Source of the DNA: Vicugna vicugna
Lineage: Eukaryota
DNA: 64,000 bases
Reading direction: 5' to 3'
Assembly (NCBI GenBank): GCA_013265495.1
Contig: MU058879.1
Coordinates: forward strand, 5,632,468-5,696,467
Every line of letters begins with the position of its first letter. Position 1 is the first letter of the stretch. Both the position numbers and the translations under genes were made by a program. The notes under the pieces are model-generated. The model did no database searches, was not told the origin of the DNA, and saw nothing but the letters and a program-made list of their open reading frames with translations. Shown piece by piece: positions 45,332-51,590 of this stretch.

Positions 45332-46303
45332 TCTTGGAACACAGAAAATACCCAGTGAGGTAAAGCAGCTTAGAAGAGGCTATTTCAAAATAGGGGTGCT
45401 GCAACCATGCAGTGTTTTATATTATGTAGCTGTTTATATTCAGAGTTTAATACCGTATTTGTATAAACTATGCATGCTACACATAATTTCTACTCTTGAT
45501 TTAAATTTGTCCTTTTCAAAACGCAATAAACTTCTTTATGATCATGGTGGCTTGACTTATAATAGTTGGTTTTAGGAATTCAAAGCACTTAATTGGCTTT
45601 TCCATCTACTCACTTAATACCCTTATCATCTAAGAAGATAGGAGGTAAGTCATTGTCTTCATTTGCCCGAGGGGAAAAGAGAGCAGGAGTCAACAAGTTT
45701 GAAAAGCCATGCTCTGGAAGCACTCTGGAATGAACAGAGCAGATTTCAGCACAAGGCTGGTCCATCTCGGCTTCCATCCAAAAAGGGTTTTGCTCGGGAA
45801 GGAGAGTAACACATCTATTACTGAGGAAGCTATGCTCAAACAGCACTTTATTGTCAGAAACTTTATTACCAGAGTTCAAAATATGTGAGGCATTAGGGAC
45901 ATACTCTACTATGTTAGTGAAGGAGCCAATTACGGTCTGATTATATCGTCAATAGTGACTGAAATAATACCAGATGTTTTAAAAAATAAAGTTATGATTC
46001 AGAGAGTCTTATGGAAAAAGGAAGGGTAAAACTTTGCTTTGGAAAATCTGAAAATACAAAAGTTATCAGAGGAGTTTCCAGATGTTGAAAGAAACATGTG
46101 CGAGAAGCGAGCATACAGATGGCCCGATATCCCCGACCTAAAGACCTCCAGCCTCCACCCAGAATCTGAGGACAAGGCACCCAGGAGCACAGCTGGCACT
46201 AAGCCTTCTCAATGTTCCCATAAAGTTAGCCGTCATCCAAGGGGAGAGAGCGTGAGGAAGTGGTGTTAAGTCCAGCGACTCAAGAGACAGAGGATAGTGA
46301 ACG

Positions 46304-46719
46304 TGGTGGGCAGTTTAGATAGAAATGAGCACTGGGCAGGAGAAGAGGAAGGGGAAAGGAGCAATCCAGAAATGTTTGCTTTCCCTAAATGAAGGCCTTT
46401 AAAAGAAGACAGTTAAAATCAAAACGCTGCAGCTGAGCCTGCCCAAGAGGGGTTGGGCATGCCAGGGAGCAGGGAACCTGAGTTGTCAATCAATCAGTCA
46501 ATCACGAAACTAGGATATAAAGACAGGAAAAACACAGGGACGGCGCCATTTTTCCCCTTTTGGATCGGCCCACTCCCAAGTCTCAAGAGTGTACTAATTT
46601 TGTTTTAACTTCACTAATAAAAATCTTGTTTATATCACAGTCTTTGTCTCTTGTCAAAAATTCCTTTTCTTCAGGTGACTAAGAGCCAGGTAATTCTTAT
46701 TTCCCTTTTCCCAGTAGTA
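46304..46719 (+). repeat. 5' LTR
   Basis: Colinear with 50949-51361 (about 85-87% by manual alignment); TATAAA 46516-46521, AATAAA 46616-46621; terminal CA has become TA. Confidence 0.95.
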
Positions 46720-46726
46720 TTAATTT

Positions 46727-46744
46727 TGGTGCTATGACTCAGAT
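46727..46744 (+). promoter_or_regulatory. primer-binding site, tRNA-His
   Basis: tggtgctatgactcagat versus the tRNA-His 3' complement TGGTGCCGTGACTCGGAT: 15/18, and all three differences are transitions at CpGs. Confidence 0.85.
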
Positions 46745-47400
46745 TGAGGGCTTAAAAATCTTTCCTCCTTCATTTCCCTCTCCCTCCCCGAGGCCAGCCA
46801 GCGGAGCACAAGCTCCTGGGGCCGCCTCTGGAGGCTGGACCGAGAAAACAGAGTGTGGTTGGGCAGGGGGGAGGGCAGCCGGGTGCACACGTGGTTGCTC
46901 CAAGCCCTGAGGGCCTGTCGGTGGCAGGTGGCCCTTCTGGTCCCCTGCTAGGCCGATCGCTGCGCCAGGCCAGAGCCGGAGCCCAGAGCCAGGGCACAGG
47001 GCTCAATCCCACTTCCCTCCCGCCCCGCATCCGGAGCTCCCAGTGACGCCGGGCCAGTCAGGCAGCAGGTGGCCCATTTGGGATCCCCTTTTTGGGCAGA
47101 TTGCTGTGCTAGGGTACCGAAGCTACATGCAACCTCCTCTGCCCAGCCACATGCACGCCTGCCCACAGCACGCCTTGTCCCCCTCACCTGCAGGTCTGCG
47201 CTGTGCTGCTCCGCCTCGCCACTCCGCCCTCCAGGGAGCTCCGGGTGGAGCTCAGCAAGGTTACGCCAGAGCCACAATAAACCAATCACCTTTCTTTCTT
47301 GCTCTCAGGTGACCAGCCACTGGCTAAACTGAAGGAGATCACTCCAATCAGACAGCACCCAGCACACAATAAGGCTGTGGCCGTTTCCCACTTTCTGGAG

Positions 47401-47550
47401 GGAGGCTGAGACGTCCGCTTCCATCCCCAAATCAGGACCCTAGGACGCTTGGCGCGGCTGATTCACGGCTACCCTCTAGGATGCATTTGGTTGTGGACAG
47501 AGGCTGAGACGTCAGCCTAGTCCACGGGCCTTTCACCTTAGGACGCTAAG
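47401..47550 (+). other. cluster of four GACG-tetraloop hairpins (putative packaging signal)
   Basis: ggaggctga-GACG-tccgcttcc (47401-47422), cctag-GACG-cttgg (47439-47452), aggctga-GACG-tcagcct (47501-47518, perfect), cttag-GACG-ctaag (47537-47550, perfect). Confidence 0.75.
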
Positions 47551-47587
47551 CTCTGAAAACCCCCTGTATCCCCACCTTGTTTTCCAG

Positions 47588-48894
47588 GTGGGAAGCAAGA
47601 CTCTGTCCCTGCTGGGACTCCTTTGGGCTGTGTGTTGGCCAACTGGGGCCTTTTTAATCTACAAACCCTCAAAGGAAAACACTTACATTCCTTTGTAGTG
47701 CTGCCTGGCCACAGTATCGACTTCCCTGCGAGGAAGCATGGCCTATAAACAGGGGCATAAACTCACCATCTTGTTCCAGCTGGATCTCATCTGCAAGAGA
47801 CAAGGCAAATGGTCTTAAATACCATACGTTCTTATCTTTTACTTACTGAGCAATGATCTAAGGATGTAAGTTAACCACTCAGGCAACGGTTACATCTAAT
47901 AACCTACTGTCCCCGACACCCCCTAGGGAGGGGGACTCTCCTAAACCTACGCCCTGCCCTGCTCTCCCTACCATATACCCTTCGTTTCCCTCAAACTCAG
48001 GAAGGACACTGCCTTTGGCTCCTCCATTACCTCTGATAGCTAAGACCTGCCCCCTGGTAGAAACAGGTAGAGAATTTGGTCCTCAATTCATACATAAGCC
48101 GTTCTCTCTGGTAGAACTGAGACAAATTAAGACTGATCTGGGAAGCTACTCAGATAAACCAGATAAATACACAGAGGCATTCCAGCACCTCACACCTGGA
48201 AAGACATTAGTATTATCCTTGGCCAGACCCTATCTGACACAGAAAAGGAAAAGGGTCTTCAGAGAAGCCAGAAAATAAGACCGGATTCCAGGCAGCCCAA
48301 CAAAGGTTATCGGTTATTCTAAGGTGTTGGCTGTTAGTCAAGAGTCCAGAGAAAATTTCACCTCCTTTTTAGCGCGACTCCTAGAGGCACTTACTAAGTG
48401 TACTAATTTGGACCTCAGCTCGTATGAGAGACAAAGCATCTCAAAGGGTAAGTTTCTCACTCAGTCTGCCCCTGATATTAGATGAAAACTCCAAAAGGGG
48501 ATCCAGGAACCTGGAGTAACTCTTGATGAAATGCTAACCACTGCTGCCACAGTGTTTTATAATCGAAAGCAGATACAAGAGGCCAAGGCTCAGGAGCAGG
48601 AAAGCAGGAAAGCAGGAAGGAGGCCAGGCCTGCCCAGGTGACTGCGGCCCCTCAAGGGCAGCCACCGTCCTGATGTCCCCAGCCCCCAACAGCCCAAGCA
48701 AGTCCACCAATAAGTGCAGCATCTGCCACCGACCTGGTCACTGGGCCAGAGAACATCCCTGCAGGGACAGACCTCCAAGATCTGCCTGCTTTTGGTGTAA
48801 CAAGCAAGATCATTGGATGGCCCTCTGTCCCCTGAGCCAAACGACCCATAGGGGAGAACCGGCCCAAGACCCGCAGATGGTTGTCTGGGACTAA
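47588..48894 (+). pseudogene. gag: ERV gag, frameshifted, with stops and an internal CA deletion
   Basis: Across frameshifts: (M>V)GSKTSVPAGTPLGCVLANW...AWPQY...QLDLICKRQGKWS*IPYV (MA); GREFGPQFIHKPFSLVELRQIKTDLGSYSDKPDKY (CA); MHR SQESRENFTSFLARLLEAL; knuckles CSICHRPGHWAREH (48715-48756) and CFWCNKQDHWMALC (48787-48828); TAA at 48892-48894. Confidence 0.92.
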
Positions 48895-50424
48895 AGAAGC
48901 CCCCTCCAGTCAGCCCCAACACAAGGGTCCCCATCACTTGGCTGGAGCCGTGGGGACAAATGGATGTGGCAGGCAGGACAGTAACTTTCCTTTTGGATAC
49001 TGGGGCCACCTACTCTGTCCTGACTTCCTTCTCCAGACCCTTCTCCTCTAGATCCTGCAGCACACCTGTCCTTCTGGTCATTAAGAAGGATGGAGCCCAG
49101 AGACTAGTCCAAAATTTAAGTCATAAACGCGGCTGTAAGGCCTCTTCATCCCGTGGGTCCACACCGCTGTGTGTCACCGAAAGCATACCTCCCGGAGCCC
49201 AGCGGTCCGTGACCTTAGAGCTAAAGCTGTTTTCTCCCGTGTACCCCGTAGTCCCCAGCCCCAATACTTGCCTGCCTTTCAGTGGGACTCACCCAGTGGG
49301 TATCAACGCCAGCTACCCTGGACAGCACGACCGCAGGAGTTTGGAGACAGTCCTCCCCTCTTTGGGCAAGCTTTGGCCCAGGATTTACAGGGCTTACAGC
49401 CTGAAAAGGGGACTATTCTCCAGTATGTAGGTGACTTACTTATCTGCTCCCTTACTGGAGAGCAGGCCATCCAGCATGCAGTCCAAACTCTTAACTTCTT
49501 GGCTGAGCAGGGATATCAAGTTTCCAGGTCCAAGACCAAAATGGTCAAAGAGGTAACTTATCTAGGAGTTGTCCTGACTCCTGGAAACTGTAGCCTTCCC
49601 CCTGAACAAATTCAGGAAATCTTACAACTCCCTAATCCCACTACTCAGAAATAGCTCAGGGCATTTCTTGGACTAACAGGTTACTGTAGGCTTTGGATCC
49701 CTCACTATGGGTCTGTAGCCCAGCCTCTATGTGACACTTTAAAGGGTAAGGATGACTCAGCACCTCTCCAGTGGGGTCCTTCCCAACACGAAACAATGGA
49801 AGAATTTAAAAGTCTCCTAGCAAGATCCCCGGCTTTGGGGCTTCCAGAACTGACAAGGCCCTTCCCGTTACATGTTCATGAGGGAGGAGGAATCGCCCTG
49901 GGGGTCCTCACCCAATGCTGGGTCCTACCCAACAGCCTATGGGATACCTCTCCAAGTGGCTAGATTCCACTGCTCAAGGCTGGCCTTCCTGCCTAAGAGT
50001 GTTGGGACCCATCTCCACTCTCCTGGAGGAAGCTTTTAAGCTAATTTTGGGGGCCCCTATACAAGCATATGCTAACCACCAAGTTTCTGATCTTTTAAAA
50101 GGTAAGGGAAATTTCTGGGTCTCAGATGCTCAGCTTCTTAAATATCAGGCATTATTATTGGAAAACCCAGATGCCACTGTCTCCATTTGCAGGGCACTCA
50201 ATCCTGCTACACTATTACCTTTCACCTATGTCATGAGACCCTGTCCATTTCTCTAGGAGCTAGAACAGATCTCACCCGCCAACCCCTGGAAAACCCTGAT
50301 GAGAACTGGTTCACCAATGGGAGCCACATATTCTTGTGAACCTCTTAGCGATCTGCGGCTGCTTTCCAAGCAACACTCCGGTGAGACTGTCCCATCGCCC
50401 CAGGGGACTATGGGTCCCTGTTAG
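48895..50424 (+). pseudogene. pol: ERV pro-pol remnant (protease N-half fused to RT; RT, connection, RNaseH start, IN C-terminal end)
   Basis: FLLDTGATYSVL (protease active site, Asp codon 48996); TPVLLVIKKDGAQRLVQNL; PQEFGDSPPLFGQALAQDL...QYVGDLL (YVDD to YVGD, 49424-49435); YLSKWLDSTAQGWPSCLR; PLENPDENWFTNGS (RNaseH D to N); YSCEPLSDLRLL (IN end). Confidence 0.92.
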
Positions 50425-50499
50425 ATAAACCTCTTTTTTAATGTCTACTGGCTCTAACCTTTTCTCTTTTGGGGCCTCCACCAAACTGTTTTAATACTA

Positions 50500-50805
50500 A
50501 TTTAAAATGTCTCTGACATTAGGGTCCCTCTTTTTACTCCTCCTTTAGTTCACTGGACTAACACTCCAACATCTGCCTTCTAAAACCTAAACCAACGGAA
50601 AGCACAGAAATCAACTTTTTTAAGACCCTTGCTTGCCCCTTTCATCCCTTGGCTAGGATTAGCTCTATATATTTGACCTCTTTCTTTTCAACCTTCTTAT
50701 AAAATGTGTTTCTTCTTGTCTAGAGTCAAACGTCAAATGGCTATACAACAAGATGATCAACCAAACAGCCAAGACAGCTTTTTATACAAGCCCCTCAATG
50801 GGGCT
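50500..50805 (+). pseudogene. env: ERV env remnant (TM membrane anchor and cytoplasmic tail; SU and ectodomain deleted)
   Basis: PLLAPFIPWLGLAL...FNLLIKCVSSCLE...KRQMAIQQ...FLYKPL resembles the HERV-W-type TM C-terminus (FNLLVNFVSSRIEAVKLQM...IYRRPL). Confidence 0.7.
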
Positions 50806-50937
50806 TCGCTCCCCACCTGCCCAGTGACAGCCAGCTAGTCTGGGTCCCCAATGAGCCCCATCATCACCCCAGATCAGCAGGAAGTAGCTAGAGCAGCCGT
50901 CGCCCTCTATGTCCCAAAGATTTGGGGTCCTATGACT

Positions 50938-50947
50938 AGAGAGGGGA
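50938..50947 (+). promoter_or_regulatory. polypurine tract
   Basis: agagagggga one base before the 3' LTR TG; preceded by the ERV1-type motif cagcaggaagtagctagagc. Confidence 0.85.
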
Positions 50948-50948
50948 T

Positions 50949-51361
50949 TGTTAGGTAGTTTCGATAGACATGAGCACTGGGCAGGGGAGAAGAAGAGGAA
51001 AGGAACTATTCGGAAATGTTTACTTTCCCTAAATGAGGGCCAGTAAAAGAAGCCAGTTAAAATCAAAGCACTGCAACTGAACCTGCCCCAAAGGGGATGG
51101 TCATGCCAGGGCACAGGGAACCTGAGATGTCAGTCAATCATGAAACCGGGATATAAAGACAGGAAAAACAAAGGAATGGCGCCACTTTCCCCTCTTGGAT
51201 CGGCCCACTCCCAATTCTCAGGAGTGTGCTATCTTTTATTTTTTTTTTTTACTTCACTAATAAAAATCTTGCTTATATCACGATTTTTGTCTCTTGTCAA
51301 AAATTCCTTTTTTTAGTGACTAAGAACGGAGGTAATTCTTATTTCCCTTTTCCCAGTAACA
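50949..51361 (+). repeat. 3' LTR
   Basis: tgttagg...cccagtaaca (TG...CA); TATAAA 51152-51157; AATAAA 51259-51264. Confidence 0.95.
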
Positions 51362-51590
51362 GAAAGAGAAGACAGGTTTTGGGGACCAGACAAGACAGAG
51401 TGAGACGCTCATTAACTGTGTAAACTTGGCTGAAATACCTCCCCCGCTGGGGCCTCAGCCTTCCTCATCAATACAATAAAGCCAATAGTAGTCACCTTGC
51501 CAGATGGTTTAAGAGTTGAGATTTTGTAGGTAAAGCACTCAGCACAATGCCCAATAAATACCAAGTGTTTAATAGTAGGGAGCTACTTAT
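51362..51590 (+). mobile_element. MIR SINE split by the provirus (head at about 46285-46303)
   Basis: Left flank gaggatagtg and right flank gaaagagaagacaggttttggggaccagac...actgtgtaaacttggc...gcctcagccttcctcatc...gtaaagcactcagcacaatgcc rejoin into a MIR. Confidence 0.65.

Follow-up and report, generated by a model that had tools for sequence, protein, structure and literature searches.

A family-wide array of four GACG hairpins, a probable dimerisation and packaging signal, in the leader of a class I endogenous retrovirus of Vicugna vicugna

An LTR element in the genome of Vicugna vicugna carries four GACG tetraloops in its leader, and the four loops are real and family-wide. Most likely they are a variant of the GACG hairpin pair of MLV, a type already known with two loops. 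The reading we favour, at a probability of roughly 0.75, is that the array would have served as an RNA dimerisation and packaging signal, that it came from an ancient duplication of a pair like SL-C/SL-D of MLV, and that it is now a neutral fossil; this reading draws on sequence comparison and on analogy with MLV. The window referred to below is the whole stretch that was analysed, 64,000 nt of contig MU058879.1, and its features are collected in Table 1.

Table 1. Features of the host element and its leader array (window positions).
Feature	Position	Strand	Remarks
LTR element, Vicugna vicugna contig MU058879.1 window	~46304-51361	+	host of the GACG array
5' LTR, approximate ends	46304-46719	+	direct repeat with 50949-51361
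Primer-binding site (PBS), tRNA-His type	46727-46744	+	PBS 15-mer of a sister copy compared with ARAGORN tRNA-His genes
GC-rich leader segment	46864-47307	+	donor-like 5' end
Leader intron of 219 nt holding the whole array	47369-47587	+	donor-like and acceptor motifs counted over the 41-row alignment
Hairpin A	47401-47422	+	loop GACG 47410-47413; private mismatch in window copy
Hairpin B	47430-47463	+	loop GACG 47444-47447; 5-bp tip, 1x3 internal loop, outer stem
Site of the proposed fifth loop	47479-47488	+	10-nt self-complementary stretch, G-U permitted
Hairpin A'	47493-47525	+	loop GACG 47508-47511; 7-bp tip and covarying basal helix
Hairpin B'	47531-47558	+	loop GACG 47542-47545; 5-bp tip, 1x3 internal loop, outer stem
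Broken gag	47588-48894	+	stops, frameshifts, internal deletion; zinc-knuckle motifs near 48715 and 48787
Broken pro-pol, approximate bounds	48895-50330	+	protease-RT region deleted, without integrase
3' LTR	50949-51361	+	repeat of the 5' LTR

In the window copy the loops are spaced 34, 64 and 34 nt apart, and the initial annotation was right in placing A and A', as well as B and B', 98 nt from one another. With a stem defined as at least four of five flanking pairs plus the closing pair, only 4 of the 60 plus-strand GACG tetramers in the 64-kb window lie on stems, and these four, all within 136 nt, are the array; the 3 of 61 that do so on the minus strand are scattered. The segment 47380-47600 folds better than its shuffles (z=-3.35). 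That all four should form stem-loops is borne out in part by the folding of this copy. A' and B' fold, and their stems of 7 and 5 bp are the two perfect ones that had been described, whereas A and B are missing from the MFE structure with a pair probability of 0.00 in context. Folded alone, the window's B, whose tip holds a private mismatch as well, does worse than shuffles. Among the 19 copies of what we call subfamily 1, A, B, A' and B' are predicted to fold (p>0.5) in 15, 13, 15 and 13, respectively; because A and B form in most sister copies, we regard these two hairpins as privately damaged in the window.

The four loop positions are found in 19 of the 19 full-length matches (subfamily 1) obtained from the 2.0 Gb genome. 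A second search added 22 further rows, made up of outliers and of subfamily 2, whose identity in this region is about 68%, and 21 of these align over all four loops, the remaining copy (L078) being without A. Conservation of the loops among family members therefore holds in 40 of the 41 rows of the alignment, from which L059 was omitted as a near-duplicate of L058, its partner in a local tandem pair. All three subgroups and copies of 2.1-6.3 kb have the four positions, as do outlier copies whose LTRs are unlike those of the window. Among 27 elements examined, all 18 with two LTRs hold at least one array, a figure that is biased because most two-LTR copies came from array-based searches. A degenerate A'-B' motif had 0 matches in metagenome and viral contigs. 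Two observations on subfamily 2 may be added. Five of its copies (L065, L066, L067, L069 and L070) lie within about 300 kb on G000:C10646 and group in trees, which suggests segmental duplication. Another, L056, has a leader stretch rich in CpG and GC boxes about 1000-1330 positions upstream of its array (oriented positions 500-830), which looks unmethylated, unlike its sister copies.

It is true that all four loop CpGs survive in the window, but their retention is what chance would give: across subfamily 1 the CpG is intact in 35 of 76 loop cells, and in 58 of 131 cells from seven CpG-type columns outside the loops (Fisher p=0.88). The window is the only one of the 19 copies with four GACG, and about 0.6 of 19 would be expected from the per-loop frequencies. 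Since loop loss equals background CpG loss, survival of these dinucleotides is ruled out as a sign of selection. The copies decayed neutrally after insertion, and for the host the element looks like a neutral fossil. The proposal of a fifth, decayed loop near 47480 is rejected as well. This site reads GATG in 17 of the 19 copies, and neither GACG nor GACA occurs there in any of them; it is stemless, and it has a different sequence in subfamily 2. Its self-complementarity recurs in 16 of the 19 subfamily-1 copies and, one column off, in 13 of 17 subfamily-2 copies, so that it is a candidate, and only that, for a dimer palindrome.

Over the 30 named pairs, 89.3% of 1211 cells can pair, vs 29-49% in slid registers. 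The covariation score of the alignment is 0.173 vs 0.138 in shuffles and is reached by none of 500, which upholds the expectation of covariation across family copies, with the other measures mixed: two of the four whole-structure measures do no better than the shuffles (both-side-changed pairs, 271/500; further pair types, 377/500). Seven of the 30 pairs differ between the subfamilies; six of these still pair, three of them changed on both sides, and the one broken pair is in A'. In neutral simulation the probability of at most one broken pair is 0.0003 at the linker rate of 0.29 and 0.004 at a rate of 0.20. The basal helix under A' differs between subfamilies in five of its eight pairs, and all five still pair. 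None of the 8 columns holding the loop G and A differ between the subfamilies vs 38 of 133 columns elsewhere. An independent prediction by RNAalifold, with a covariation term of -2.75, recovers the basal helix of A' and the tip of B', along with a covarying helix beside the donor (columns 17-23 with 36-42); on the gapped alignment it does not predict the A, B and A' tips. In subfamily 1 taken alone, non-CpG columns are less variable where they are paired than where they are not (30/912 vs 95/1793, p=0.02). When the 22 rows of subfamily 2 and outliers are folded singly, A, B, A' and B' form in 2, 5, 13 and 7 of them, and this poor folding is tentatively ascribed to decay of stem CpGs. The covariation is essentially a single split between two subfamilies. 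Comparison of the aligned copies shows the stems to have been preserved by paired changes during replication of the lineage.

Loop A is preceded, at a distance of about 41 nt, by a donor motif that is degraded in the window copy, and the acceptor AG stands immediately before the gag start position, in keeping with the claim that the array sits just upstream of gag. With donor and acceptor flanking it, the array thus amounts to a 219-nt intron. A search with an array-free query gave 23 loci with the gag start of this family (40 of 42 candidates scored); the array is present in 20 of these and the flanks are joined in three, L048, L050 and L051, which makes the spliced sample a small one of three copies only. 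L050 and L051 begin near R and are without U3 and 3' LTR, and would pass as L1-made processed copies, for which a HERV-W parallel is described in PMC5016936. The LTR of L050 differs from that of the window family. L048 is a two-LTR provirus with a subfamily-2 array further downstream, and it also displays a second, canonical leader splice besides the one across the array. Further upstream, the GC-rich leader segment is kept in 3 of 19 subfamily-1 copies (the window, L038 and, in part, L043) and is partly common to subfamily 2. Its loss has one junction common to most subfamily-1 copies; the 5' end fits a donor and the junction fits an acceptor imperfectly, and a splice or a template-switch deletion are the candidate causes.

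What kind of retrovirus carried this array can be judged from its remaining parts. A PBS of tRNA-His type is a HERV-H trait, and in 8 of the 11 loci scanned a 15-mer taken from the PBS of a sister copy (L029/L151) lies at the 3' terminus of tRNA-His genes called by ARAGORN. Two zinc-knuckle motifs are present in the window, L035, L042, L047 and L052, and one or no such motif was detected in other copies, which are decayed or deleted. Two NC zinc fingers are given in PMC1224870 as the mark of the HERV-H group among gamma-like elements, the MLV-like ones having a single finger. Because of these two knuckles we assign the host element, on its sequence features, to the HERV-H-like class I ERVs, with a HERV-W/9-like affinity as an alternative. 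Sister copies hold RT, RNase H, rve (integrase core), MLVIN_C and Gag_p30 domains; Pfam left the 322-aa Gag frame of L045 unmatched and recognised Gag_p30 in two other copies. Among solved structures, MLV-type enzymes are the nearest to the RT, and its homologs are mostly ERV proteins of birds, reptiles and amphibians (37-47% identity). Gag is 34-56% identical to its 27 matches, mostly near 40%, with macaque and human ERV proteins among these and identities of about 34-42% to primate ERV Gag; named HERV references were absent from the Gag and RT homolog matches.

The LTR pair of the window has a K2P distance of 0.134 (396 aligned sites), and 17 pairs in the family range from 0.08 to 0.16 with a median of 0.124. 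At the general mammalian rate, LTR divergence of this order corresponds to about 28 million years. At the camel rate given in PMC8605555, the median equals about 12 million years. Target duplications of 4 nt, exact or 3-of-4, were seen in six of the seven copies with both ends recognisable. The window flanks (46300-46303 and 51362-51365) have no matching 4-nt duplication, for which decay and recombination between two insertions are both candidate explanations.

In MLV the packaging signal is downstream of the leader splice donor and is absent from spliced RNA. The family array is likewise downstream of the leader donor and missing from the three spliced genomic copies. Like SL-C and SL-D, it consists of GACG tetraloops on stems, in adjacent pairs, in the leader before gag. 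The two MLV stem-loops are described as kissing between genomes through their CG bases, with two palindromes and tandem UCUG sites beside them (PMC3265304; PMC3247676; PMC5874298; PMC7599994). Even the spacing is comparable: the midpoints of MLV H2 (310-352) and H3 (355-374) are roughly 33.5 nt apart vs 34 nt in the family array, a comparison that takes its coordinates from a reference title in PMC516450 and assumes centred loops. In contrast to MLV, the family has four loops instead of two, a 219-nt intron with its acceptor at the gag start, and a host element with a His PBS and two zinc knuckles. Neither the window element nor any of 11 loci searched matches Rfam model RF00374 at E<=10, and no match was found genome-wide among the 53 of 145,976 candidates scored. 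The tandem UCUG-UPu-UCUG of MLV was not found in the family leader alignment, in which the recurring UCUG sites are single and far apart (columns 33 or 66, and 217), and the upstream palindromes PAL1/PAL2 (DIS-1/DIS-2) have no clear counterpart upstream of the array. Palindromes of at least 10 nt, with G-U pairs allowed, do recur in the B-A' and A'-B' intervals; these are common by chance, and one of them depends on CpG decay. The label "gammaretroviral" of the initial annotation is consequently not supported in the MLV sense, given the PBS, the knuckles and the unmatched RF00374, while its proposal of a GACG-hairpin signal of packaging or dimer type is sustained by the pair-preserving divergence and by the position from donor to gag start.

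GACG tetraloops are not confined to MLV. They are described as aiding dimerisation in the dimer linkage of RD-114 and in the DIS of Maedi-Visna (PMC5874298; PMC516450), which differ from the present array in having two loops and one, respectively, and neither of which belongs to the HERV-H-like class I. HERV-H-like ERVs share the two zinc knuckles and the tRNA-His PBS with our family, which unlike them is non-primate. The literature searched holds no four-loop form, no GACG loops in HERV-H-like leaders and no mapped packaging signal for HERV-H/W-like elements, with Konings 1992 and possible human class I entries in it outside this coverage. We also went through the leaders of 60 distant Gag matches, out of 145 in total, with a stem scan and by visual inspection. 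GACG-type hairpins after a donor-like motif are seen in at least three further class I families (L084-L126, e.g. L090, L095 and L118), in the form of two hairpins about 84 nt apart, of two in a roughly 50-nt tandem repeat, or of one. Many distant leaders are without GACG hairpins, being decayed, spliced or truncated.

If the MLV mechanism applies, each loop would use its CG to kiss with a loop of the partner genome, and this kissing would build the dimer scaffold for Gag/NC. Packaging would fall to the unspliced RNA, which keeps the array, and the small splice would yield a gag message without it. Because the loops are the same and only their stems differ, both subfamilies could also co-package, which fits the recombinants in the family. 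L033 (G000:C4104:13524116-13534115) and L040 (G000:C8256:18282828-18292827) each have two arrays in tandem, a subfamily-1 array followed by one of subfamily 2, which brings the loop positions to eight; both LTRs are present in L033, whose 4-nt TSD nearly matches. For L036, L044 and L062, the gag-MA and NC-PR trees disagree. Such recombinants are what co-packaging and template switching would give, with DNA-level exchange as an alternative.

Granting a signal of this kind, it may be asked how two hairpins became four. The doubled pair is supported by its loop distances, which are 34 nt within each pair in subfamily 1 and 37 and 34 nt in subfamily 2, and by the architecture common to B and B', whose 5-bp tip and 1x3 internal loop above an A-U pair are found in all subgroups; B and B' are also alike in sequence (median z 5.5 in subfamily 1 and 3.2 in subfamily 2), and the order of long A and short B repeats. 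These same features speak against the idea that the four arose by repeated copying of single hairpins and homogenisation, a route to the same packaging or dimer signal that we consider unlikely but still the strongest of the competing accounts. In its favour are the linkers between hairpins, which have no repeat similarity (z about 0), the other class I families described above with one or two hairpins, one of them as tandem repeats, and the behaviour of A. In subfamily 2, A is closer to B (z 3.7) than to A' (z 2.5), and in subfamily 1 the likeness of A to A' rises to z 6.9, its tip being that of A'; subfamily 2 and the outliers have another A tip. Probably an old duplication came first and A in subfamily 1 later acquired the A' tip by copying, so that the strong likeness of A and A' is probably later copying rather than a trace of the duplication. 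Because of such copying, two double changes in A may be one event. Subfamily 2 and the outliers lie on both sides of the midpoint root, and we place the doubling before the two subfamilies; it was not gained by the deleted window copy.

This last point bears on the claim that the duplication was tied to a deleted element. Doubling might have been selected in deleted, non-autonomous genomes that would out-compete helper RNA for Gag, an explanation we hold to be improbable. No room for env exists in the examined copies (in the longest two-LTR copy only about 0.7 kb separates the integrase from the 3' LTR), and internal deletions are common to several copies, which together argue that deleted genomes were amplified and mobilised in trans; the two-array recombinants exist as well. 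Yet these recombinants are just 2 of 27 elements examined, and comparison of longer and shorter copies gives the same four positions from 2.1 to 6.3 kb, in all subgroups and in outliers with non-matching LTRs. The helper-competition idea is therefore not needed, and the tie to a deleted element is not supported. No relative with env or with two hairpins was found. Marginally better odds, though low ones, go to the view that the structure was kept mainly for splicing or for control of gag translation (e.g. as an IRES) and that the GACG loops are incidental. The array fills the intron exactly, the covarying helix adjoins the donor, and spliced copies exist; but the same loop appears four times in both subfamilies and is the known kissing loop, and the two-LTR copy that lost an array by splicing carries another. 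This view is in any case compatible with a packaging role. Very improbable, finally, is a present-day host function of the window array, as protein-binding DNA or co-opted RNA, that would preserve its loop CpGs. The window alone keeps four GACG together with the GC-rich leader (CpG o/e 0.44-0.48 over 46501-47500), against which stand the background rate of loop CpG loss and the damaged A and B stems. The one RNA contig run gave no depth over the array and had one joint, with non-canonical ends.

An ancient packaging and dimerisation pair, since duplicated, remains our preferred reading, and it may extend beyond this family. We tentatively propose, at somewhat less than even odds, that class I elements, HERV-H/W-like lineages included, have the GACG kissing-loop signal as an expandable module from their ancestry, here boxed in a 219-nt splice-switch intron. 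If so, splicing of this intron would decide whether a transcript serves as a packageable genome or as a gag message lacking the array, and the MLV kissing-loop mechanism would be pushed deeper into the class I tree. The covarying four-fold array offers a concrete structural prediction for one HERV-H/W-like lineage, and class I ERVs of human and of other mammals can be scanned for the motif. The families would form a natural loop series, with one, two or four loops in families and eight in the recombinants, in which one can ask whether dimer stability scales with loop number. Among the distant Gag matches, L131 looks like a copy without the hairpin-bearing leader region. Another, L093 (G000:C8808:957837-958106), whose leader gave no GACG hairpin in the scan, falls within an open frame of 1274 aa and for this reason appears to be a much younger class I element.
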